Position numbers and translations under genes: made by a program. Shown piece by piece: positions 1-33,299 of a stretch of 64,000 bases of DNA. Under the pieces are notes generated by a model. The model had not been told where the DNA came from. It saw nothing but the letters and a program-made list of their open reading frames with translations, and did no database searches. Where the stretch lies: sequence record PQ362703.1; one strand, 5' to 3'. The stretch comes from Escherichia phage vB_EcoP_PW8. Numbering within the stretch: position 1 is the stretch's first letter; each line of letters opens with the position of its first letter.

Positions 1-257
1 TCCATGAATACAGCAGTCTTACCTGCACCACGGAAGCACAGGTTAACTACATACTGGTTCGGACTAATCATCTTATCCAGCATCTTCAAGTGAACTGGCG
101 GTGTTTTGTTGGATTCACCTTCCTTACCATTAACCAACTTAATGAAGTTGGCAAAGGTAAGAGCAAACTGACTAGGAACATAGTTAGATGAATTTAGGTG
201 GGAGTAATCCACCTGGTCTAGCCATTCATCCAGTTCCTGTTTAATTAACTCAGACAT
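1..257 (-). CDS. 5'-truncated-by-window P-loop protein, probable terminase large subunit (N-terminal ~85 aa only)
   Basis: Minus-strand ORF starting ATG at 257..255 and running off the window start; translation ends ...NLCFRGAGKTAVFM, a Walker A P-loop of the kind seen in terminase ATPase domains; position matches the right-end genes of N4-like genomes. Confidence 0.4.
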   Translation of the reverse strand, partial: MSELIKQELDEWLDQVDYSHLNSSNYVPSQFALTFANFIKLVNGKEGESNKTPPVHLKMLDKMISPNQYVVNLCFRGAGKTAVFM

Positions 258-7095: not shown

Positions 7096-7911
7096 ATGTA
7101 CTCATCTATTGAACATCAGAAGCAGCTCGAAAAACTATTCAATAAAAATCAGCTCTTGCCTCGCATGAGGAAGGAATTCGAGGACTCCGAAGAAATTGAC
7201 TTTAAGGCTTTTGCTGCCTATTTAGAAATTGATTATAAGCTGCTCATTGATGCAATGGTGCAGATTGCCCTACATAAACGTGCTGACATCCAAACTATGA
7301 TTGGCTCTCTCATGAGTCATTCAGATGATGCTCAGTATATCGCTGACTGTCTGTATAAGATGGCAGAGAATGACTGCTTCAACTATGACCCTACCATCGA
7401 CAAGTTCGGTGTTATTTATGAGATTAGTGAAGATGTACAGATGGAACTGGAAGCATTCCAGTACCCATTGCCTATCGTAAGTGCTCCTAAGCCTGTTAAG
7501 TGTAACCGTGATACTGGTTACTACGAAAGCAGAGGTAGCATCATCCTCAAGAAGAACCATCATGAGATGGATGTCTGTCTTGACCATATCAACCGTATGA
7601 ACAATCAACGTCTCTGCATTAACTGGGACGTTGCTAACTATGTAAAAGACTCCCGTCCTAACATGGATAAACCCAAAGAGGGTGAAACCCGTCAGGACTA
7701 CGAGAAGCGTGTTAAAGCCTTTGAGAAGTACAGCCGTACAGCTAAGGAAGTAATGGAGCTAGTGACCAAAGAAGGTAATAACTTCTCCTTGGCTCATCGT
7801 TACGATAAGAGAGGACGCACTTACTGTTCCGGATATCATATATCCTATCAAGGCACTTCCTATAACAAAGCTGTTATTGAATTTGCAGACAAAGAACTAG
7901 TAGAGGACTAA
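7096..7911 (+). CDS. phage RNA polymerase II small subunit (N4 gp15-like; N-terminal part of a T7-like single-subunit RNAP)
   Basis: 271 aa, matching the size of N4 RNAPII small subunit (established knowledge); sits upstream of the ORF carrying the T7-RNAP catalytic motifs. Confidence 0.55.
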   Translation: MYSSIEHQKQLEKLFNKNQLLPRMRKEFEDSEEIDFKAFAAYLEIDYKLLIDAMVQIALHKRADIQTMIGSLMSHSDDAQYIADCLYKMAENDCFNYDPTIDKFGVIYEISEDVQMELEAFQYPLPIVSAPKPVKCNRDTGYYESRGSIILKKNHHEMDVCLDHINRMNNQRLCINWDVANYVKDSRPNMDKPKEGETRQDYEKRVKAFEKYSRTAKEVMELVTKEGNNFSLAHRYDKRGRTYCSGYHISYQGTSYNKAVIEFADKELVED

Positions 7912-8417
7912 TGAAACCAACTCAAGCAGAGTTGATGGAACTAATCGACTATGGCCCAGTGAATGGAACATTTCATTGGACTCATAGTCCATTGGTGTAC
8001 ATCAACGTAAGAGGTAAGGAGACTGGCTTATCAGGCTCCAGAGGACATCGAAAGATTGTCATTAATAAACAGGAATACAAGGCTCATCACGTAGCCTGGT
8101 GTATCATGACTGGTTCATGGCCTGAACAGGTGGATCATAATGATACAAACCGGGCCAACAACCGTTGGAATAACCTACGTGAGGCAACTCATGCACAGAA
8201 CATGTGCAATAGAACCATGAACAAGAATAACACTTCTGGATTTAAAGGTGTGCGTATTCGTAATGGTAAATACTTAGCCCAAATTCAAGTCAAAGGCACC
8301 AAAATAGCATTAGGTTCATTCACTGATCCAGTGGATGCTGCTAAGGCTTATGATGCTGCCGCAATTAAATACTTTGGTGAGTTCGCCAAAACAAACAAAG
8401 AACTCAATAACTATTAA
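7911..8417 (+). CDS. free-standing HNH homing endonuclease with AP2-like DNA-binding domain
   Basis: HHVAW...VDHNDTNRANNRWNNLREATHAQN HNH motif plus C-terminal AP2-like block ...AAKAYDAAAIKYFGEFAKTN; paralog of the 29675 ORF; inserted between the two RNAP subunit genes. Confidence 0.75.
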   Translation: MKPTQAELMELIDYGPVNGTFHWTHSPLVYINVRGKETGLSGSRGHRKIVINKQEYKAHHVAWCIMTGSWPEQVDHNDTNRANNRWNNLREATHAQNMCNRTMNKNNTSGFKGVRIRNGKYLAQIQVKGTKIALGSFTDPVDAAKAYDAAAIKYFGEFAKTNKELNNY

Positions 8418-8461
8418 TCCATTATGCGAGCCAAGTGGCTCAAGACGCTAAGGAACATAAA

Positions 8462-9679
8462 ATGCAACTGTTAACCGCTCGTGAATACCTGAAAGTAGAT
8501 ATCGCCAATTCTTATGGCTTGGATAAAAAGACATGGGATGAACGTATTGCTTGGTTTGATGAGAACGAAGCTAACCTGCTTAATCTGGTAGATGAAGCTG
8601 AAGATTCTGCTCTGTTCTTTGCTGGTGTAAACGCATGGAAAGATATGAAAGCAGGTAAACCTATTGGTTATGCCGTAGCTCTTGATGCTACATCATCTGG
8701 CTTGCAGTTACTGGCCTGCCTGACTGGTGACCGTTCTGCTGCTGAACTGTGTAACGTAGTTAACTACATGGGCGAGAATGGTAAGCCATTACGTCGTGAT
8801 GCTTATACAGTCATCTATCACAAGATGCTGGACATCCTTGGTGAAGCATCCCGTATTAAACGTAGTGACACTAAGCAGGCAGTTATGACTGCATTCTATG
8901 GTTCAGAAGCCAAGCCTAAAGAAGTATTCGGTGAAGGTATTCGTCTCAAGACTTTTGAGAATGTAATGGAAACTGTTGCTAGTGGTCCTTGGGCACTTAA
9001 CAAGTTCTTACTGCAATGTGGTAATCCAGATGCCAACCGTTATGTATGGGTACTTCCTGACAACTTCCACGCTGTCATTAAGGTCATGATTCCAGAAGTA
9101 CAGACTGTTAACTTCTTAGGTAAGCCATTTGACATCACTCGTATGGTTCAAGGTACTGAAGAGAAGACCCGTATGCTCTCTGCTAACATCACCCACTCTA
9201 TTGATGGAATGGTGGTACGTGAGATGCTGCGTCGTTGTAACTTCGACATGAACCAGATGAGCTATGTTAAGGCTCTTTGTGAGGGAACTGGTGAATACAC
9301 GGTAGGTTCTGATGATAATTATGAAATGGTTAATACACTATGGACTAGTTATGAGAAGTCTGGATTCCTGTCTACCCGTATCTTTGATTATCTGGACTCA
9401 GAAACCATTGCATTGGTAGATACAGATGTAATCTTAGCTATGCTCAATACTATGCCTAAGAAGCCATTCCCTGTAATGACTGTACATGACTGCTTCCGTT
9501 GCCATCCTAACTACGGTAATGACCTACGTCGTCAGTACAATCAGATTCTGTCCGACATTGCTAAGAGTGACCTACTGGGTTTCATCCTGTCTCAGGTACT
9601 AGGACAAGAGTTCTCTGCTGGTAAGCTGGATGACAGCCTCTGGCAGGACATTCTTGAAACAGACTATGCGTTGAGTTAA
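8462..9679 (+). CDS. phage RNA polymerase II large subunit (N4 gp16-like, T7-like RNAP catalytic part)
   Basis: T7-RNAP-like motif A LDATSSGLQ, motif B RSDTKQAVMTAFYGS, motif C VHDCF; track ORF 8435 (GTG) trimmed to ATG at Met10 with AAGGA RBS. Confidence 0.75.
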   Translation: MQLLTAREYLKVDIANSYGLDKKTWDERIAWFDENEANLLNLVDEAEDSALFFAGVNAWKDMKAGKPIGYAVALDATSSGLQLLACLTGDRSAAELCNVVNYMGENGKPLRRDAYTVIYHKMLDILGEASRIKRSDTKQAVMTAFYGSEAKPKEVFGEGIRLKTFENVMETVASGPWALNKFLLQCGNPDANRYVWVLPDNFHAVIKVMIPEVQTVNFLGKPFDITRMVQGTEEKTRMLSANITHSIDGMVVREMLRRCNFDMNQMSYVKALCEGTGEYTVGSDDNYEMVNTLWTSYEKSGFLSTRIFDYLDSETIALVDTDVILAMLNTMPKKPFPVMTVHDCFRCHPNYGNDLRRQYNQILSDIAKSDLLGFILSQVLGQEFSAGKLDDSLWQDILETDYALS

Positions 9680-11874: not shown

Positions 11875-12745
11875 TAGGGCTTTGTGAGGGTGACCTCACA
11901 TCGAAAGCTATCTAAATGGGGAAACTCCTACTATTACAGGGAAACCATGATACACTCTGGTTTCCCAATAGAGGACAATCCCATGCTAAATATTAATGAA
12001 AGTTGGAAAGACATTGTTGGTTATGAAGGTTACTACGAAGTCTCTACGCATGGTCGTGTTAGAAATACCCATACAGGTATGATAAAGAACCAATGTGTAC
12101 AGACTAGCGGCAAGTATCTACAAGTTAGTTTGTGGAAAGGCAACAAAGAAAAAAGATGTTTAGTACATCGCTTAGTTGCTATAGCCTTCATTCCTAACCC
12201 CGAAGACAAGCCTCAAGTAAACCATTTAGACAAAAATGATAAGAACAACCATGTTCAAAATTTGGAATGGGTAACCATATCCGAGAATCATTTACATGCA
12301 TTTGCTAATGGTAGAAAAGGCTCCAAATCCCGACTAGGTGAAAAAACTAGTAAAGCCTCTCAGTATCGATATGTGTACTGGGATACCAAAAGAGCTGTTT
12401 GGAAAGCATCTATAAAGATAGACGGCAAAACAGTAAACATTGGTAGATTCAATACTGACCTAGAAGCAGCTTTAGCCGCTGATGAGGCAATTGATTCCTG
12501 GGGCTGGGATAGAATTAAAAACTTTCAATAATTAAATGCCTAACGACTATCGAAAACACGTAGTGATACGGAAGTGAGTAGAGTAGGGTGCAAGCCAATG
12601 GCACTCGAAAAGATAGCCACCCGGACAGGTAAAGCTGAGGGTGTTGATATAGTCTGGTCTGCGTAGTAATACGTAGCTGTATATGTCCAACTCGCATATA
12701 CGGGTAGAGCCTTGCAAACTCTACTGAACATAACGTAGTGGTTTG
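11869..12745 (+). mobile_element. putative group I intron carrying an HNH homing endonuclease ORF (boundaries approximate)
   Basis: Splits the ATPase between Walker A and Walker B; begins CTT|AACTAATAGGGC like the second intron; 3' part has stem-loops and blocks AACGACTATC, GAGTAGGG, GATATAGTCTGG shared with the intron at 33690. Confidence 0.55.
11983..12531 (+). CDS. intron-encoded HNH homing endonuclease
   Basis: WKDIVGYEGYYEVSTHGRV N-terminal module, HNH block QVNHLDKNDKNNHVQNLEWVT, C-terminal AP2-like block; track ORF 11884 trimmed to Met34 with AGAGGA RBS. Confidence 0.65.
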   Translation: MLNINESWKDIVGYEGYYEVSTHGRVRNTHTGMIKNQCVQTSGKYLQVSLWKGNKEKRCLVHRLVAIAFIPNPEDKPQVNHLDKNDKNNHVQNLEWVTISENHLHAFANGRKGSKSRLGEKTSKASQYRYVYWDTKRAVWKASIKIDGKTVNIGRFNTDLEAALAADEAIDSWGWDRIKNFQ

Positions 12746-26245: not shown

Positions 26246-28825
26246 ATGCGTTATATCACCTCTCAAGACACGGGTAAGTATCCTATTGCTATCCTCGGTC
26301 ATCAAATCCGAAGGGAGGAGATGATTAAAACCTACCTGCTGCCTAATGACTTAAGCATGGAAGATTTCATCTTCATTGAACTTCATTCTGCCCCTGGCAA
26401 GAAGAAGACTCCTGCAAGGGAAATTAAAGAGTTCATACAGCAGGAACTGCAACAAGTACTGGATGATGCAGAGACTCAATACATTATCTGTACTGATTCT
26501 GATTACTTCAAAATACTGACCAAAGAAGCTAAAGCAGAGGCTAATCTCGGCTACGTTTGTGATTCAGTATGGGGTAAACAGAAGGTTATCTATGCACCTA
26601 GCTACAGGCAGGTCTTTTATGACCCACCTGTAGTGAAAGCCAAGATTGCTCAGGGCATGGATGCATTACTTAACCACATTCGTGGACAGTATGCCGAACC
26701 AGGTCAGGGAATCATTGAGTTTGAGGCTTACCCGGATACTCCAGAGAAGATTAAAGCCTGGTTAGACCAATTGCTTGAGATGAATAAGCCTCTGGCTATA
26801 GACATTGAAGCATTTGGTTTAAAGCACTATAACGCCGGTATAGGAACAATTACGTTCTGTTGGAGTAAGACACAGGGCATAGCCTTTAATGTGGACTACG
26901 AGCCAATTCCTGGAGCTACAGAAGCACCTTATGGGCGTATCAACAGAAATGATGTTGTTCGAAATCTTCTGCGTGAGTTCTTCATTAAGTACACCCAACG
27001 GCAGATGTATCACAACATTAGCTATGACGTGTATGTGCTTATCTATCAGTTATTCATGGATAACCTGATTGATACAGAAGGCTTACTGTATGGCATGGAA
27101 ATCATGCTACGTAACTGGGACTGTACTAAGTTAATCACCTACCTGGCTACTAACAGTTGCGCTGGTAATCACCTTAGTCTGAAAGACCAGGCTCAGGAGT
27201 ATGCTGGTAACTATGCTCAGGATGATATTAAAGACATCCGTCTTATTCCTAATGAGCAATTGTTACGCTACAACCTCATTGACGGCTTGTGTACCTGGTA
27301 CACCTATGAGAAGCACTGGGATACTCTCATTGCTGACGACCAGCTAGATGTTTACAACAACATCTTTAAGCCAGCATGTGAAGACATCATCCAGATGCAG
27401 TTAACCGGTATGCCCATGAATATGGATACCGTTAACCAAGTAGCTAAAGAGATGGAAACTGACAGGAACCAGGCCCTGAAAACTATTCGTGAGTCCAAGC
27501 TCATGAAGAACTTCACCCTGATGCTTCGTCAGGAATGGGTAGACGATAAGAATGCTAAGCTCAAGAAGAAGCAAGTAACACTTGCTGACTGTGACATAGA
27601 GTTTAATCCTAACTCAGGTCCACAATTACAAAAGCTGTTATTTGATTATATTGGCTTACCGGTTCTTGGTCTTACTAAGAACAAGCAACCTGCTACTGAT
27701 GGTGACACCATTAAAGCACTGCGAACACATACGCAGAGTGAAGATGTTAAGGAACTGCTCAATGCACTTATCGACTATAAGCTCGTGGATAAGATTATCA
27801 CTAGCTTCATCCCGGCTTTCAGGAATGCACAACCAGGACCGGATGGCTGGCACTATCTATTCGGCAACCTCAATCTGGGGGGAACGGTTTCTGGTAGATT
27901 ATCTGCCTCCGAGCCAAACCTGCAAACCATACCGTCTGGCTCCAAATATGCCAAGAAGATTAAAAAATGCTTCGAAGCCCCACCAGGTTGGATCTTTTGT
28001 GGACTGGACTTTGCGAGCCTTGAAGACCGTATCTCAGCTTTAACTACTAAAGACCCACAGAAGCTTAAGGTATATACCGATGGCTATGATGGACACAGTC
28101 TACGTGCATATGCTTACTTTGGTGAGCAGATGCCAGACATAGAGGACACAGTAGAATCCATTAACTCCATTCAGCACAAATACAAATCATTACGTAGTGA
28201 CTCGAAGGCTCCAACCTTCCTGCTTACCTATGGTGGTACGTATATGGGCTTAATGAAAAACTGTGGCTTCTCAGAAGAGAAAGCTAAAACAACAGAGAAA
28301 CGTTATCACGATCTCTATGTAGTTAGTGATATGTGGGTTCAGGCTAAGCTAGATGAAGCTGCCAAAACTGGTTATGTTACTGCCGCATTCGGTTTGAGAG
28401 TGCGTACTCCTTTACTGGCTCAGGTTTTACGTGGGACATGTAAGACTCCGTATGAAGCAGAAGCAGAAGGCAGAACTGCTGGTAATGCTTTAGGGCAAAG
28501 CTGGTGTCTACTGAATAACCGTGCTGGTTCAGAATTTATGCGTAAAGTCAGAGCCAGTGAGTTCAGGTTAGATATACGTCCTAGTATTCATATCCATGAT
28601 GCTCAGTACTTCATGATTCGTGACAACATGGATACCTTGCAGTTCACAAACAAGCACTTGGTTGAAGCCGTTAACTGGCAAGACCATCCTGATATTGCTC
28701 ATTCAGAGGTTGGCTTGGGTGGGGAACTATCCTTGTTTTACCCAACGTGGGCTAACGAGATTGAAATTCCAAATCACGCTACCCCAGAAGAAGTTCATCA
28801 AATAATTCAAAAGGCATTCTCATGA
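26246..28825 (+). CDS. family A DNA polymerase with 3'-5' exonuclease domain
   Basis: Exo I LAIDIEAFGL; Pol A motif A LDFASLEDRI; motif B ...KAPTFLLTYGGTYMGL; motif C IHIHDAQ. Confidence 0.8.
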   Translation: MRYITSQDTGKYPIAILGHQIRREEMIKTYLLPNDLSMEDFIFIELHSAPGKKKTPAREIKEFIQQELQQVLDDAETQYIICTDSDYFKILTKEAKAEANLGYVCDSVWGKQKVIYAPSYRQVFYDPPVVKAKIAQGMDALLNHIRGQYAEPGQGIIEFEAYPDTPEKIKAWLDQLLEMNKPLAIDIEAFGLKHYNAGIGTITFCWSKTQGIAFNVDYEPIPGATEAPYGRINRNDVVRNLLREFFIKYTQRQMYHNISYDVYVLIYQLFMDNLIDTEGLLYGMEIMLRNWDCTKLITYLATNSCAGNHLSLKDQAQEYAGNYAQDDIKDIRLIPNEQLLRYNLIDGLCTWYTYEKHWDTLIADDQLDVYNNIFKPACEDIIQMQLTGMPMNMDTVNQVAKEMETDRNQALKTIRESKLMKNFTLMLRQEWVDDKNAKLKKKQVTLADCDIEFNPNSGPQLQKLLFDYIGLPVLGLTKNKQPATDGDTIKALRTHTQSEDVKELLNALIDYKLVDKIITSFIPAFRNAQPGPDGWHYLFGNLNLGGTVSGRLSASEPNLQTIPSGSKYAKKIKKCFEAPPGWIFCGLDFASLEDRISALTTKDPQKLKVYTDGYDGHSLRAYAYFGEQMPDIEDTVESINSIQHKYKSLRSDSKAPTFLLTYGGTYMGLMKNCGFSEEKAKTTEKRYHDLYVVSDMWVQAKLDEAAKTGYVTAAFGLRVRTPLLAQVLRGTCKTPYEAEAEGRTAGNALGQSWCLLNNRAGSEFMRKVRASEFRLDIRPSIHIHDAQYFMIRDNMDTLQFTNKHLVEAVNWQDHPDIAHSEVGLGGELSLFYPTWANEIEIPNHATPEEVHQIIQKAFS

Positions 28826-29127
28826 CCAAAAGTACTAAAGAAACTGTAGTCAGAAAATATCATTGGATGGTAGCAGCACAAGTAGTATTCCAGCTTCCTA
28901 AAGTGGACGATGGTTCCCTGCTTACCATGAACACAATGCTGCTCACTGACGAACCTTATGTGACTTATAAAGATTTGGCCCGTGCTAATCATTCCCTGAA
29001 GATTAGTCTGGACCAGCGTTTTGATACCTCGGTTGACCTGAAAGACATTGTTTATCTGTCCCTTAGCAACCTGGGTCTGATGTCCGAACCAGAGTTCCAG
29101 GCAAACATGATTCCTAAGGATAAATAA
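28822..29127 (+). CDS. hypothetical protein
   Basis: 101-aa ORF, ATGA-coupled to polymerase. Confidence 0.5.
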   Translation: MTKSTKETVVRKYHWMVAAQVVFQLPKVDDGSLLTMNTMLLTDEPYVTYKDLARANHSLKISLDQRFDTSVDLKDIVYLSLSNLGLMSEPEFQANMIPKDK

Positions 29128-29603
29128 TGGCTAAGCTCTCCGGTGGATTAAATAACTGGTATGTAGTGCCAGTTAAGCACCCTCAACGGAAAGAGCAAGA
29201 GCCATACCAAGCAGAGTGTGAGGATATTATCCAAGCACTGGGCATGACCTTCGATGAAGGTTGTGCCTTTAAAGCTCTATGGCGAAATGCTGCTGCCCGT
29301 ATGGGTAATGGTAAACCTGGTAATACTGCTGTTTACGATGCAGAGAAGCTGGTTCATTATGCTAATCGTATTCTTGCTAAGGAGAAGTTAGCTAGTGAGT
29401 TATTTCCGGATCCTGCTACGAATGTAAATACCGTTGGTAGTTATTGGCATCATACAAACAATGGTAAACCTCACTTCACTAAAGAATTTTCATTCATTGA
29501 GATTGTTTATAAAGATGAACGAGATGAAATTTACTCGTATAACTTCAATCAGCTAAGTGAAATTAAGTGGAACCGGGTTCACAGATACAGGATTACTTAC
29601 TAA
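29127..29603 (+). CDS. hypothetical protein
   Basis: 158-aa ORF. Confidence 0.5.
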   Translation: MAKLSGGLNNWYVVPVKHPQRKEQEPYQAECEDIIQALGMTFDEGCAFKALWRNAAARMGNGKPGNTAVYDAEKLVHYANRILAKEKLASELFPDPATNVNTVGSYWHHTNNGKPHFTKEFSFIEIVYKDERDEIYSYNFNQLSEIKWNRVHRYRITY

Positions 29604-29668
29604 TGAAGATAACCAACAATCATGATGTCTCACTGGCCCTGGCTGTATGGCTATTACATGATGAGTAA
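29603..29668 (+). pseudogene. 21-codon remnant duplicating the 5' end of the downstream nuclease gene
   Basis: Encodes MKITNNHDVSLALAVWLLHDE*, matching the N-terminus MKLTNKHDVSLALAVWLVTDD of ORF 30169 with many synonymous differences. Confidence 0.4.
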
Positions 29669-29674
29669 CTAATT

Positions 29675-30172
29675 ATGAAACAGAGGATTGCCCATGACAG
29701 GCTTTTACAGCTTGTTAGTTATGACCCTATTTCCGGAATTTTTACTCGTAGGAATACTGGGAAGGTATCCGGTTACCTAATGAAGAGTGGCTACACTCAG
29801 CTCCGTGTGGATAGCGTGTTGTACTATGGGCATATCCTTGCATGGTTCTATGTGCATGGCGTATGGCCTACGGATAGGATTGACCATAAGGACAATATAC
29901 GCCATCACAACTGGATAGATAACCTCAGAGAAGCGACCCACAAGCAGAATAACCAGAGTGCTGTTTTATCTAAAACAAACACATCTGGATTTAAGGGGGT
30001 ATCCTTTTCAAAGAATTTAGGTAAATACAGAGCAACTATTTGGGTTAACAGCAAACCAATTACATTAGGTTTCACAGATGACCCAAGAGAAGCTGCTGTT
30101 CTCTATGATGAAGCTGCTATAACTCATTATGGTGAGTTTGCTAAAACTAATAAGCAATTGGGACTGTTATGA
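29675..30172 (+). CDS. free-standing HNH homing endonuclease with AP2-like domain
   Basis: HILAW...IDHKDNIRHHNWIDNLREATHKQN and C-terminal AP2-like block; paralog of ORF 7911. Confidence 0.75.
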   Translation: MKQRIAHDRLLQLVSYDPISGIFTRRNTGKVSGYLMKSGYTQLRVDSVLYYGHILAWFYVHGVWPTDRIDHKDNIRHHNWIDNLREATHKQNNQSAVLSKTNTSGFKGVSFSKNLGKYRATIWVNSKPITLGFTDDPREAAVLYDEAAITHYGEFAKTNKQLGLL

Positions 30173-31149
30173 AACTTACCAACAAACACGACGTTAGTCT
30201 TGCACTAGCGGTATGGCTTGTAACGGATGATTATGATTACGTAGATAACCCCAAATATCTATCCGTTACTACACTGCTTAAACCCATTAAGCAAATCGTC
30301 ATGAAGCATCGTGTAGATTTAAGTGACCAGTCAATTGATGTTATGGATTTCGTCTCCACATCAATGGGTACTGGTTTACATGATTCTATCGAGAAAGCCT
30401 GGAAGCTGGGTCATAAGACTGCATTGAAGAAGCTAGGTTATCCTCAGCGTGTAATTGATGCAGTAGTCATTAACCCAACCAAGGAAGACTTTGATGCTAA
30501 CCCTGACCTTATCCCAATCTACATTGAACAACGTGGAACCAAGGTAGTTAAGGGTTGGACTATCGGTGGTAAGTTCGACATCGTAACAGAAGGTCTGCTG
30601 CAAGATTTTAAGTCTACCTCAACCTATTCCTGGGTTGCTGGTTCCCGTGATGATGAACACAAGATGCAAGGTAGCTTGTACCGTTGGATTCACAACGACA
30701 TCATTACCGAGGATGTAATTCGCATTAACTACATCTTCACTGACTTCATGAAGCACATGGCTAATAGCAATCCGAACTATCCTGCTAATCGTATTATGCA
30801 CAAGGATATTCCGTTGCTATCTGTCGAGAAGACTGAACGTTGGGTAGAAGAGAAGATTCACCTCATTGAGAAGTACTGGAATACACCTGAAGAGGAAATT
30901 CCTGAGTGTACTGACGAGGAGTTGTGGCGAACAGAACCACAGTTCAAGTACTTCTCTGATGCTTCTAAGGTAGATGTACCTGGAGCCAGAAGTACCAAAA
31001 ACTTTGACGATATGGCATCTGCTCGTATCTTCATGGCTGAAAAAGGTGGCAAGGGTGCTATCAAGGTCGTGGAGGGGCAGGTTAAGCGTTGTCTGTACTG
31101 CCCTGTCGCATCCATTTGCAAACAAAGAGAGAGATATTTTCCATCATGA
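30169..31149 (+). CDS. PD-(D/E)xK-family exonuclease, Cas4/RecB-like with C-terminal Cys cluster
   Basis: C-terminal CLYCPVASIC cysteine cluster typical of Cas4-like Fe-S nucleases; phage exonuclease context. Confidence 0.5.
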   Translation: MKLTNKHDVSLALAVWLVTDDYDYVDNPKYLSVTTLLKPIKQIVMKHRVDLSDQSIDVMDFVSTSMGTGLHDSIEKAWKLGHKTALKKLGYPQRVIDAVVINPTKEDFDANPDLIPIYIEQRGTKVVKGWTIGGKFDIVTEGLLQDFKSTSTYSWVAGSRDDEHKMQGSLYRWIHNDIITEDVIRINYIFTDFMKHMANSNPNYPANRIMHKDIPLLSVEKTERWVEEKIHLIEKYWNTPEEEIPECTDEELWRTEPQFKYFSDASKVDVPGARSTKNFDDMASARIFMAEKGGKGAIKVVEGQVKRCLYCPVASICKQRERYFPS

Positions 31150-33299
31150 GTATTGACCTGACCGGAGTCACTCACCACGCTGCAATTGAAGAAATTGTAG
31201 ACGTGCTGTGTAACAAGACACAAAACAACGACAGAGGATTCTTCCGTGTCGAAGTAGCCTACTTCCTGGCTAAAATGGCATCCTGCATGGGTGCAACCAT
31301 TGTCACTAAAGACCGTGGTGACTTACCAGTCAACATTTACGCTATGGCATTAGCAACGTCTGGCTTCGGTAAAGGTCACTCGGTAAATATTATTGAAGAC
31401 GGGTTCATGACTGGCTTCCGTAAACGCTTTATGGAAGACACCATGCCCGTCATTGCAAATGACCGTTTATGGAAGATTGCTAACGAACGTGCTGCTCGTC
31501 AGGGTACAGACCAGAATGATGAGTTTGATAAAGTTGAAGCAGAGTATAAACGTGCTGGGGCATACCCGTTTACGTTTGACTCAGGTACTCCACCAGCAGT
31601 TAAACAACTACGTCATAAACTGTTAATGGCTGGGTGTGGTTCAATCAACCTTCAGATTGATGAAATTGGTTCAAACCTGCTGGCTAACACAGACGTACTA
31701 ACCTTATTCCTGGAGCTATATGACCAGGGTAAGGTTAAGCAGAAGCTAACCAAGAACACTGCTGAAAGCGTTCGTGGTGAAGAACTGGATGGTAAGACTC
31801 CAGCTAACCTATTGCTGTTCGGTACACCAAGTAAGCTACTGGATGGGGGTCAGACTGAAGACCAGTTCTATGACTTCCTTGATACGGGGTATGCACGTCG
31901 TTGTCTATTTGCCATTGGGCATTTAGACAAACGAGCACATGCAACAATGTCTCCTGAAGAAATCTACCGTAACCTCATTAAGCAGGATAACGTTCAGTCT
32001 CTAGGTAAGTGGGCTAACCACTTTCATAGTTTGGCTGACCCAAACCTGTTCGGTTTTAAGATGGTTGTGGAAGATGCAGTGGGAATTGCTTTGATTACTT
32101 ACAAAATTGATTGTGAGAAGAAAGCAGAAGCTATGGCTGACCACGAAGAGATTCGTAAAGCTGAAATGTCTCACCGTTACTTCAAAGCTCTTAAACTGGC
32201 AGGTGCATTGGCGTTTGTTGACCAGAGTTCCTTCATTGAGATGTCTCATCTTAAACAAGCAATTCTGCTTGTAGAGGAATCTGGGGCAGCATTCCAGGGT
32301 ATTCTCAATCGTGAGAAAGCCTATGTGAAGCTGGCTAAGTACATTGCTTCTGTAGGTAAAGAAGTGACTCATGCTGATTTACTTGAGTCATTACCGTTCT
32401 ATAAGAGTGGCAATGCAGCTCGTAATGAGATGATGACCCTTGCTACAGCATGGGGCTACAAACAGCACATCATCATTAAGAAAACCTTCAACGAAGGCAT
32501 TGAATTTTTCCGTGGGGAAACTCTGAAAGAAACTGACATCAATGAGATCATAGTGGCATATAGTGATAGCTTTGCCTATGACTACATTGGTGAACGTGTA
32601 CCGTTCGACCAGTTGCATGTATTAACCCAAGCTCCTGGTATGCACTGGGTAAACCATCACATGAAGAATGGGCATCGTTCTGAAGAGAACGTTATTCCAG
32701 GATTTAACATGATTGTTATTGACTGTGATGGTGGAGTACCACTGCATACGTGCCATGAACTGATGAAGGAATATAAGTTCATGACCTATACCACTAAACG
32801 TCATTCCGATGAAGAGAACCGATTCCGACTGATTATTCCAATGAACTATGAGTTACACCTAGACACCGAGGAATACAAAGAGTTCATGAATAACGTTATG
32901 TCTTGGCTACCGTTCGAAACGGATGAATCTGCTAACCAACGAGCCAAGAAATGGATGTCCTGTGAGACTGGTTCTTATCATTACAATCTTGAAGCAAATC
33001 TGTTAGACGTGCGTGACTTTATTCCTCGTACTAGTAAGAACGAGCAGTTCCAGAACCAGATGAAGGAAGTACAGTCGTTGGATAGTCTGGAGCGTTGGTT
33101 CGCTAGTCGTATTGCTACCGGTAATCGTAATAATCAAATGATTAAGTACGCACTGGCATTGGTTGACAGTGGTTGGGATTTTGCCCAAGTACAGCAAGCC
33201 GTACACTCATTCAATAAGAAACTGGCTAATCCATTGCCAGATGATGAATTGAATGCAACCGTAATGGTCACCGTGGCTAAACGCTTCGCTGGCAAGTAA
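31146..33299 (+). CDS. putative DNA primase (primase-polymerase-like C-terminal region)
   Basis: Track ORF 31089 trimmed to ATG Met20 (ATGA overlap); N-terminal P-loop-like TSGFGKGHS; acidic block NMIVIDCDGG; sits between nuclease and recombination genes. Confidence 0.45.
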   Translation: MSIDLTGVTHHAAIEEIVDVLCNKTQNNDRGFFRVEVAYFLAKMASCMGATIVTKDRGDLPVNIYAMALATSGFGKGHSVNIIEDGFMTGFRKRFMEDTMPVIANDRLWKIANERAARQGTDQNDEFDKVEAEYKRAGAYPFTFDSGTPPAVKQLRHKLLMAGCGSINLQIDEIGSNLLANTDVLTLFLELYDQGKVKQKLTKNTAESVRGEELDGKTPANLLLFGTPSKLLDGGQTEDQFYDFLDTGYARRCLFAIGHLDKRAHATMSPEEIYRNLIKQDNVQSLGKWANHFHSLADPNLFGFKMVVEDAVGIALITYKIDCEKKAEAMADHEEIRKAEMSHRYFKALKLAGALAFVDQSSFIEMSHLKQAILLVEESGAAFQGILNREKAYVKLAKYIASVGKEVTHADLLESLPFYKSGNAARNEMMTLATAWGYKQHIIIKKTFNEGIEFFRGETLKETDINEIIVAYSDSFAYDYIGERVPFDQLHVLTQAPGMHWVNHHMKNGHRSEENVIPGFNMIVIDCDGGVPLHTCHELMKEYKFMTYTTKRHSDEENRFRLIIPMNYELHLDTEEYKEFMNNVMSWLPFETDESANQRAKKWMSCETGSYHYNLEANLLDVRDFIPRTSKNEQFQNQMKEVQSLDSLERWFASRIATGNRNNQMIKYALALVDSGWDFAQVQQAVHSFNKKLANPLPDDELNATVMVTVAKRFAGK

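Follow-up and report, generated by a model that had tools for sequence, protein, structure and literature searches.

A cassette of an HNH-AP2 endonuclease gene and a re-coded gene start in the exonuclease gene of G7C-like N4-type coliphages

We analysed a stretch of 64,000 nucleotides from Escherichia phage vB_EcoP_PW8 (PQ362703.1; this whole stretch is called the window throughout), a G7C-like N4-type coliphage of the genus Gamaleyavirus, family Schitoviridae, which shows about 96% identity to phage ECBP1 over the locus stretch. The element studied is a free-standing HNH-AP2 endonuclease gene that lies between a gp41-like open reading frame (ORF) and the exonuclease gene. A preliminary description, made from the letters of the window, had read the locus as the insertion footprint of a homing endonuclease gene (HEG), flanked by a duplicated and diverged 5' end of the target gene, and this was borne out by HEG-free relatives, by a sharp boundary of divergence and by clean excision of the insert in silico. 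According to the compared loci, the short ORF upstream of the endonuclease gene, called the stub below, is the resident start of the exonuclease gene, and the functional start downstream is the one imported with the endonuclease. The replacement start is fused in frame to the resident gene body, which leaves the exonuclease intact. In our view, how the cassette is built, its polarity and its limits, as well as the evolutionary part of the account, are close to certain; for the overall mechanism, in which an HNH-AP2 homing cassette in codon 22 would bring a re-coded start that provides both immunity and rescue, we estimate a probability of roughly 0.7. The coordinates of all features are collected in Table 1.

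The stub product is MKITNNHDVSLALAVWLLHDE and the N-terminus of the exonuclease in the window is MKLTNKHDVSLALAVWLVTDD. The two gene starts agree at 43 of 63 bases (45 of 66 when codon 22 is included) and at 16 of 21 residues. Six codons are identical, ten differ synonymously (12 base changes) and five non-synonymously (8 base changes), in keeping with the earlier remark that the nucleotide differences are largely synonymous; for Ser10, one copy has TCA and the other AGT. When the exonuclease N-terminus was compared with the about 128,000 six-frame 21-mers of the window, the runner-up match reached 9 of 21 residues, and at the base level the mean match was 16.1 (standard deviation 3.5) with a runner-up of 31. 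The 21-codon ORF proposed to duplicate the 5' end of the nuclease gene was thus confirmed far beyond chance. The previously noted ATGA overlap of the endonuclease stop with the exonuclease ATG at 30169 was found as well, and the start of the primase-like gene at 31146 overlaps likewise. In HEG-free relatives, the gp41 stop overlaps the exonuclease ATG instead of the stub ATG, as TAATG or TGATG. Public records annotate gp41, the HNH endonuclease (G7C gp41.1) and the exonuclease (N4 gp42 homologue) at this locus, and the 21-codon ORF in none of them.

The polarity of the exchange was read from a comparison of 14 Gamaleyavirus loci, with St11Ph5, PE007, PBM-3, PhAPEC5, nithesis, pSb-1, phiG17, ZQ2 and UE-S5b as the HEG-free set and ECBP1, Bp4, G7C, Mimir124 and EC1-UPM, together with the window, as the carrier set. 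HEG-free genomes contain the stub-type sequence only, in a single copy that serves as the exonuclease start directly after gp41; the same gene start without the insert was therefore present in N4-like relatives, and there the sequence occurs only as the nuclease start and not as a separate conserved small gene. In carriers, the stub is followed by the endonuclease gene and then by a second sequence type, which is the working exonuclease start. The stub differs from the exonuclease starts of HEG-free genomes at 2-4 of the first 60 bases, whereas the re-coded copy differs from the HEG-free alleles at 20 of 63 bases while its reading frame is continuous with the gene body. All stub polymorphisms are synonymous and most of them are common to functional exonuclease alleles. 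Since the stub is near-identical to HEG-free exonuclease starts, it must be considered the resident sequence and the downstream copy the imported one. The preliminary description was hence right about the duplication, but it had taken the upstream ORF for the diverged copy, and this assignment has to be reversed.

The limits of the cassette could be placed precisely. A sliding comparison of carrier and non-carrier exonuclease genes gave 31% divergence over bases 1-66 and 9% from base 67 onward, the latter being the same as within the groups. Placement of the junctions is ambiguous by a 2-base TA microhomology (GAGTA|A... and ...GATTA|T), and the TAA stop of the stub is itself produced by the left junction (GAG TA|A). 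Removal of the cassette in silico yielded an intact 326-codon ORF that is colinear with HEG-free PE007, with 448 of 465 positions identical across the junction. The left junction is identical in five carriers besides the window, EC1-UPM having an extra 3-base deletion beside it, which indicates, as far as the junction sequences tell, a single ancestral insertion event behind the Gamaleyavirus carriers.

Some further details of the two copies were recorded. In the window, extra synonymous substitutions cluster at 30244..30276 in exonuclease codons 26-36 (GAT AAC CCC AAA TAT CTA TCC); most of these are present neither in other carriers nor in empty-site relatives, and the donor tract may originally have been longer, with this cluster as its remains. 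In G7C and Mimir124, the re-coded copy contains a resident-type patch at bases 18-24 (AAT CAT GAT), a patch that the working copy may have acquired from the stub by gene conversion. The stub and the endonuclease ORF share a reading frame, with TAA CTA ATT between them, so that read-through of the TAA would fuse both products; this frame is kept in EC1-UPM despite its 3-base deletion.

The re-coded segment was then compared with the rest of the gene in terms of synonymous (dS) and non-synonymous (dN) divergence. Between the re-coded 21 codons and the resident type, dS is saturated and dN is 0.21, while the remaining 305 exonuclease codons of the window show dS of 0.18-0.22 and dN of about 0.005 against HEG-free relatives. 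As a yardstick, the window and the different genus Moovirus are separated by a dS of 1.6 and a dN of 0.10. By this measure, the 63 re-coded bases are no less foreign than another genus would be and thus of foreign origin, in accordance with the proposal that the HEG arrived with foreign flanking sequence. At the protein level, the re-coded segment reads LVTDD where the family pattern is L-[LVM]-[HYF]-D-E. Thr19 occurs in only one of 119 homologue cluster representatives, namely the Gamaleyavirus cluster itself, and the LVTDD motif was absent outside that cluster among 120 exonuclease homologue cluster representatives. Y22 and D23, the residues that follow the re-coded segment, are invariant in 119 exonuclease homologues.

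The same arrangement of stub, HEG and exonuclease gene was seen in no fewer than eight phages sequenced independently of one another (ECBP1, Bp4, PD38, Uz-1, G7C, Mimir124, 24-32N and EC1-UPM) and is therefore not an assembly artefact. The locus is polymorphic for presence and absence, with 8 carrier phages versus dozens of non-carriers, and the re-coded exonuclease start was found in 8 of 8 carriers, i.e. in strict linkage to the endonuclease gene. PE007 is a near-isogenic non-carrier with 98% identity in the left and 96% in the right flank. The C-terminal half of gp41 (29300..29600) is hypervariable, with at least five allelic types among Gamaleyavirus of which only the last codons (YRITY) are conserved; these types include a truncated form of 94 amino acids, which has a 23-base overlap with the exonuclease start (ZQ2, pSb-1 and Logan contig L020). 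The cassette with its identical left junction adjoins three gp41 C-terminal types, one of which is also present in the empty-site phage PE007. Given the same junction in three gp41 backgrounds and a known near-isogenic non-carrier, the cassette appears to be mobile. Across the gp41 backgrounds, the conserved sequence left of the insert is limited to the stub and about 20 bases, which fits a function of the stub as left homology arm during copying of the cassette. A comparable role has been proposed by Barth and colleagues (PMC10055350), where small gene fragments in phage 'HEG-islands' are seen as recombination substrates for later homing.

Replicate cases were found in other N4-like lineages. 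Endonucleases with 46-56% identity are located directly upstream of the exonuclease gene, with the ATGA overlap, in Burkholderia phage HN01, Salmonella phage As2 and one IMG/VR contig; among 80 IMG/VR loci with an endonuclease relative, the exonuclease gene lies downstream of it in four (G7C, ECBP1, L029 and L030). Both phage lineages include relatives with an empty site. In Ithacavirus, As2 and the HEG-free phages FSL SP-076 and SP-058 share an essentially identical left flank (10 mismatches in 300 bases), whereas the exonuclease start of As2 differs by 21 substitutions in bases 1-63 and by none in the next 42, which places the boundary at codon 21. Likewise, HN01 shows no mismatch to the HEG-free HN02 and HN03 in the 300-base left flank, 29 substitutions in bases 1-84 of the exonuclease gene and only one in the next 42, with the boundary at codon 27. 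The endonuclease ATG of As2 occupies the position of the exonuclease ATG after TAATT, and in HN01 the endonuclease GTG occupies that of the exonuclease GTG. Linkage of a re-coded start to the endonuclease thus extends to Ithacavirus and Burkholderia phages, and on these comparisons the endonuclease lineage appears always to travel with its own first 21-27 exonuclease codons, the tract ending at the conserved Y-D-Y motif. No copy of the exonuclease start was found in the 74-base gap before the endonuclease gene of HN01, in the corresponding 49-base gap of IMG/VR contig L029 or at the As2 junction; replacement was clean and left no stub in the Ithacavirus and Burkholderia lineages because upstream homology exists there. 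The linker of the window (cTAATTATG) resembles the Ithacavirus sequence (aTAATTATG), a likeness which suggests that the upstream gene of the donor was unrelated to gp41. With such a donor, the left join in Gamaleyavirus would have been illegitimate and the native start would have been left behind as the stub. As a matter of annotation, the records of FSL SP-076 and SP-058 begin the exonuclease 36 bases too far downstream, as judged from the ATG with which all homologues align.

Hybrid exonuclease starts were detected in seven HEG-free sequences, comprising the complete phages K57alpha1.2 and NAN33P5, three Logan contigs and two metagenome contigs, with at least three different crossover positions (Table 1). 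In all seven the 5' part is of the resident type and the 3' part of the cassette type, and bases 51-63 (codons 17-21, LVTDD) always belong to the latter; a chimera of opposite polarity was not seen among these seven sequences. The flank comparison took in four of them. By both flanks, the closest relatives of K57alpha1.2, NAN33P5 and Logan contig L021 were carriers (Mimir124 and G7C), and the flanks of Logan contig L020 were closest to non-carriers. Chimeras could originate in two ways: the HEG would be lost through recombination between the stub and the re-coded copy, or a break at codon 22 would be repaired from a re-coded copy without copying of the endonuclease gene. Both routes leave a HEG-free allele that keeps the junction-proximal re-coded codons. 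In the record of Klebsiella phage vB_Kpl_K57alpha1.2 (OY979416.1), the feature table is out of register with the sequence and a 'portal protein' is placed over the exonuclease start.

Table 1. Positions in the window of the features at the exonuclease locus, and crossover positions of chimeric HEG-free alleles (counted in bases of the exonuclease gene)
Feature	Position	Strand	Remarks
gp41-like ORF, 158 amino acids	29127..29603	+	TAA stop overlaps stub ATG as TAATG
Stub mini-ORF, resident exonuclease codons 1-21 + TAA	29603..29668	+	native sequence up to 29667
Putative left half of endonuclease target site, resident codons 17-22	29650..29667	+	stretch cassette-type in all chimeras; tract boundary at codon 21/22
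Inserted cassette, 566 bp	29668..30233	+	linker ACTAATT, endonuclease gene, replacement exonuclease codons 1-21 + TA
HNH-AP2 endonuclease gene, free-standing, 165 amino acids	29675..30172	+	intact ORF; 6-base spacer after stub
Exonuclease gene, N4 gp42 homologue, 326 amino acids	30169..31149	+	hybrid of cassette codons 1-21 and resident codons 22-326
Re-coded exonuclease codons 1-21, cassette-borne	30169..30231	+	start codon and N-terminus now in use
Putative right half of target site, TATGATTACGTAGA..., Y-D-Y motif	30232..30250	+	boundary of divergent tract; resident-type onward
Chimera crossover, complete phages K57alpha1.2 and NAN33P5	bases 9-11		
Chimera crossover, two Logan contigs	somewhere in bases 9-26		
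Chimera crossover, one Logan contig and one metagenome contig	bases 31-35		
Chimera crossover, one metagenome contig	bases 42-50		

The endonuclease matched the Pfam family HNH_3 (E=2.8e-9, 36.9 bits, cut-off 24.8), and the only PDB sequence match was the AP2 protein WRI1 (E=0.0055). An HNH domain combined with a C-terminal AP2 domain is a recognised architecture of homing endonucleases (Magnani et al. 2004, as cited in PMC10448857). The HNH (beta-beta-alpha-metal) catalytic motif is complete, and residues D70, H71, N79, N83 and N92 are invariant among endonuclease relatives with 46-96% identity. The ORF is intact in 6 of 6 carriers compared (the window and five others) with dN/dS ratios of 0.04-0.10, and the endonuclease is under strong purifying selection. 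An endonuclease borne by an intron or intein was considered and ruled out, as there is no intron RNA and the gene has its own start and stop and is out of frame with the exonuclease gene; in 28800..31300 no Rfam family, group I and II introns included, was matched at E<=1 except for a chance snoRNA match. For the exonuclease, the Pfam match to PDDEXK_1 (PD-(D/E)XK; E=0.0026, 18.2 bits) was below the cut-off of 22, and a PDB sequence search gave no match below E=0.2. The name 'Cas4-like' used before for this nuclease is accordingly not established, and the records call the gene an N4 gp42-type exonuclease.

Regarding expression, the duplex of the endonuclease start with the anti-Shine-Dalgarno sequence had an energy of -2.3 kcal/mol, the same as background, and no Shine-Dalgarno sequence is present. 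The start codon of the stub lies within the gp41 stop codon and the stub stops 6 bases before the endonuclease ATG, so that the chain of genes would stay translationally coupled. The stub would act as a translated leader, with ribosomes running from gp41 through stub, endonuclease and exonuclease to primase by termination and reinitiation.

Taken together, these data lead to the following model of homing. The enzyme would cut HEG-free alleles within or close to codon 22, where a conserved stretch encodes HDEYDY. In carriers, this site would be destroyed twice, since the stub holds only its left half and the functional copy joins the right half to a re-coded left half (LLHDE changed to LVTDD); carriers would therefore be immune. 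Repair of the double-strand break in a co-infecting HEG-free genome would copy the cassette, with the stub and about 20 conserved gp41 bases as left homology arm and the exonuclease body as right arm. The cassette would have entered Gamaleyavirus from a donor without upstream homology, the left junction being formed illegitimately at the broken end with the help of the TA microhomology. The lack of upstream homology in that donor would also be the reason why a stub exists only in Gamaleyavirus.

Several points weigh against this model. It is from comparative patterns that we infer where the enzyme cuts, that the re-coded allele is immune and that homing takes place at all. Among free-standing endonucleases of the T4 type, cleavage hundreds of bases away from the enzyme's own gene is frequent (PMC2988022), and a cut right at the junction is therefore not guaranteed; the sharp end of the divergent tract could reflect later recombinational erosion instead of the position of a break. 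Likewise, the chimeras could stem from ordinary recombination between two repeats, for which no cleavage is needed. The Pfam AP2 match at the C-terminus of the endonuclease is weak (E=0.0015, 19.3 bits, below the gathering score of 33.3). On the coding strand of the cassette, no sigma-70-type promoter or terminator was detected in a scan that did not extend to N4-type middle promoters, so that an internal promoter may still exist. In addition, a donor of the re-coded 63 bases was not found: a sensitive blastn search of 50,697 phage records matched Gamaleyavirus carriers and two chimeras, IMG/VR contained G7C and ECBP1 only, and JGI metagenomes gave just two chimeric HEG-free contigs. To judge from these searches, the donor is outside the sampled sequences.

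Among the alternatives, it is conceivable that the endonuclease is mobile and cuts elsewhere, that the re-coded 63 bases are co-converted donor DNA without a role in immunity and that the stub is a neutral scar. Such passive hitch-hiking would be in line with free-standing phage endonucleases, which typically cut far from the insertion site and co-convert flanking markers (PMC2988022). However, two lineages have the end of the divergent tract at codon 21/22 and a third has it at codon 27, even with endonucleases that share only 46-52% identity with that of the window, and every chimeric HEG-free allele keeps the junction-proximal cassette codons 17-21, which hold non-synonymous changes at otherwise conserved positions, with Thr19 being unique among 119 homologues. 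Hitch-hiking is thus unlikely in our opinion. A frozen accident, in which a domesticated or decaying endonuclease is immobile and patchiness and chimeras arise from general recombination, is less probable again. Gamaleyavirus genomes are indeed highly mosaic, as seen from the at least five gp41 types, and 22 loci of insertion, deletion or replacement in G7C-like phages are reported in a preprint (10.1101/542787). Nevertheless, dN/dS ratios of 0.04-0.10 and an endonuclease ORF that is intact in 6 of 6 carriers compared do not fit decay, nor do the identical junction in three gp41 backgrounds and the endonuclease-exonuclease partnership kept in three distant lineages fit an immobile gene.

The two copies are collinear, have the same orientation and flank the endonuclease gene, and no external donor turned up in phage records, IMG/VR or JGI metagenomes; these facts would agree with a tandem duplication of the gene start that arose in situ, on both sides of an intergenic endonuclease gene already in place, with subsequent local divergence and without any foreign DNA. 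Yet synonymous divergence has reached saturation in the 63 bases, next to sequence that is only about 5-9% away from relatives, a serine codon is switched at all three bases, the boundary of divergence is razor-sharp, the stub is near-identical to present-day HEG-free alleles, and homologous cassettes in other genera have diverged gene starts of their own without duplication. We regard this origin as highly improbable. Hardly any credence can be given to the idea that the mini-ORF is a small conserved gene in its own right, with no relation to the insertion: the ORF is open in all carriers, its start is coupled to gp41 and its polymorphisms are synonymous only, but none of the HEG-free relatives has a separate ORF, the sequence being the exonuclease start there, and the stop codon is made by the junction. 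Most of the synonymous polymorphisms segregate in functional alleles and are therefore due to ancestry and not to selection on the stub.

The homing model may be extended to a more far-reaching scenario, which we put forward tentatively and at somewhat less than even odds. According to it, the N4-like exonuclease and an old HNH-AP2 lineage co-evolved as a natural 'home-and-rescue' drive, whose unit always comes with re-coded and cleavage-immune first 21-27 codons and takes over the translation start. In Gamaleyavirus, the stub would have been co-opted as left homology arm and leader, and the nested chimeras would be resistance alleles that arose from endonuclease pressure.

Further endonuclease genes were observed in the window and in related phages. 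A second HNH-AP2 endonuclease with 50% identity is located exactly between the exonuclease and primase genes in PBM-3, PhAPEC5, ZQ2, Moo19, EC1-UPM, HN01 and a Logan contig (coordinates in the collected loci L005:2772-3287, L004:3341-3829 and L021:3478-3993; also in L006, L017 and L014). Most of its carriers share a distinct 5' allele of the primase gene with 12 of 60 differences from the window, in which this junction (31146) is empty. That site was considered as a part of the feature and rejected, as it has no stub. Elsewhere in the window, an HNH-AP2 paralogue of 168 amino acids (7911..8417, + strand; about 42% identity to the endonuclease of the cassette) sits between ORFs 7096..7911 and 8435..9679, its ATG overlapping the upstream stop. 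A tblastn match at 12013..12330 (+ strand; 45% over 111 amino acids, E=1e-12) to an HNH/NUMOD-type endonuclease of Logan contig L020 (L020:550-1227), which splits the DNA polymerase gene there, may represent another endonuclease gene or a remnant.

The feature lies within known homing-endonuclease biology and is not a new kind of system. In phage T4, the free-standing endonucleases SegB, SegF, SegG and MobE propagate by intronless homing, with co-conversion of flanking markers (PMC2988022; for SegB, PMC2330249). Like these, the present HEG sits without intron or intein between or within essential replication genes and is patchy among close relatives, flanking markers are co-converted and the carrier has a variant target allele, which here would confer immunity. 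In contrast to the T4 genes, the insertion lies inside the coding sequence of the target, the variant segment belongs to the insert itself and contributes the start codon, the native segment that it displaced has been kept, and the cut would be made at the junction and not hundreds of bases off. MobE in nrdA of Aeromonas phage Aeh1 ('genes in pieces'; cited in PMC2988022) is also a free-standing HNH gene inside an essential coding sequence whose function is retained. There, nrdA is split into two polypeptides that reassemble, whereas the exonuclease gene remains undivided thanks to the new 5' end that the insert brings along.

In structure, the nearest precedent is provided by mitochondrial mobile-ORF hybrids, described for atp6 of Allomyces macrogynus and for atp6, atp9, cox2 and nad3 of Glomus (PMC3630166). 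In both systems, an endonuclease ORF comes with a foreign, in-frame and mostly synonymously diverged gene end, and the native end is displaced and kept beside the insert as a duplicate, which is unused in the mitochondrial cases. Unlike these hybrids, the phage cassette replaces the 5' end and the start codon, while it is the C-terminal (3') end in all described mitochondrial cases; moreover, the host is a lytic phage, the enzyme is of the HNH-AP2 and not of the LAGLIDADG or GIY-YIG type, and the remnant is probably translated as a leader. Because of the replacement at the 5' instead of the 3' end, we consider the phage cassette an analogue and not a member of this group. Small ORFs next to HEGs are fragments of a neighbouring essential gene also in HEG-islands (Barth, Dunham and Seed; PMC10448857 and PMC10055350), and the combination of HNH and C-terminal AP2 domains is recognised there as an endonuclease family (PMC10448857). 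In these reports, the fragments are noted in general terms and for ICP1-like vibriophages, whereas in the N4-like phage polarity, the 566-bp unit, replicate lineages and chimeras could be resolved. There is also a likeness to synthetic ClvR or home-and-rescue drives (PMC6442612), in which a nuclease against an essential gene is linked to a re-coded, cleavage-resistant rescue copy; as those are engineered, RNA-guided and work in diploid animals, the likeness is one of logic only, the re-coded phage segment being a presumptive immunity determinant. A full-text search of the literature on homing endonucleases of G7C- and N4-like phages or on Gamaleyavirus endonucleases gave no sign of a description of the stub in the portions of the texts that it returned; where homing endonucleases come up in the text that was consulted, they are treated in a general way only.

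For annotation, the stub explains the unannotated 72-base 'gap' in G7C-like genomes, and caution is advisable with the first 21 codons of the exonuclease gene, whose evolutionary history differs from that of the rest. More generally, the locus is a compact natural example of a selfish endonuclease that resides inside an essential gene without harm by bringing a re-coded copy of the very segment it would target. Carriers, empty-site relatives, three replicate lineages and graded chimeras can all be had as cultivable coliphages of known sequence. Direct experiments can thus address the target site, the determinant of immunity and the life cycle of the endonuclease, from invasion and spread to a loss that leaves resistant scars. 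If the home-and-rescue scenario is true, the chimeras would pin down codons 17-21 of an essential replication protein as the source of immunity.

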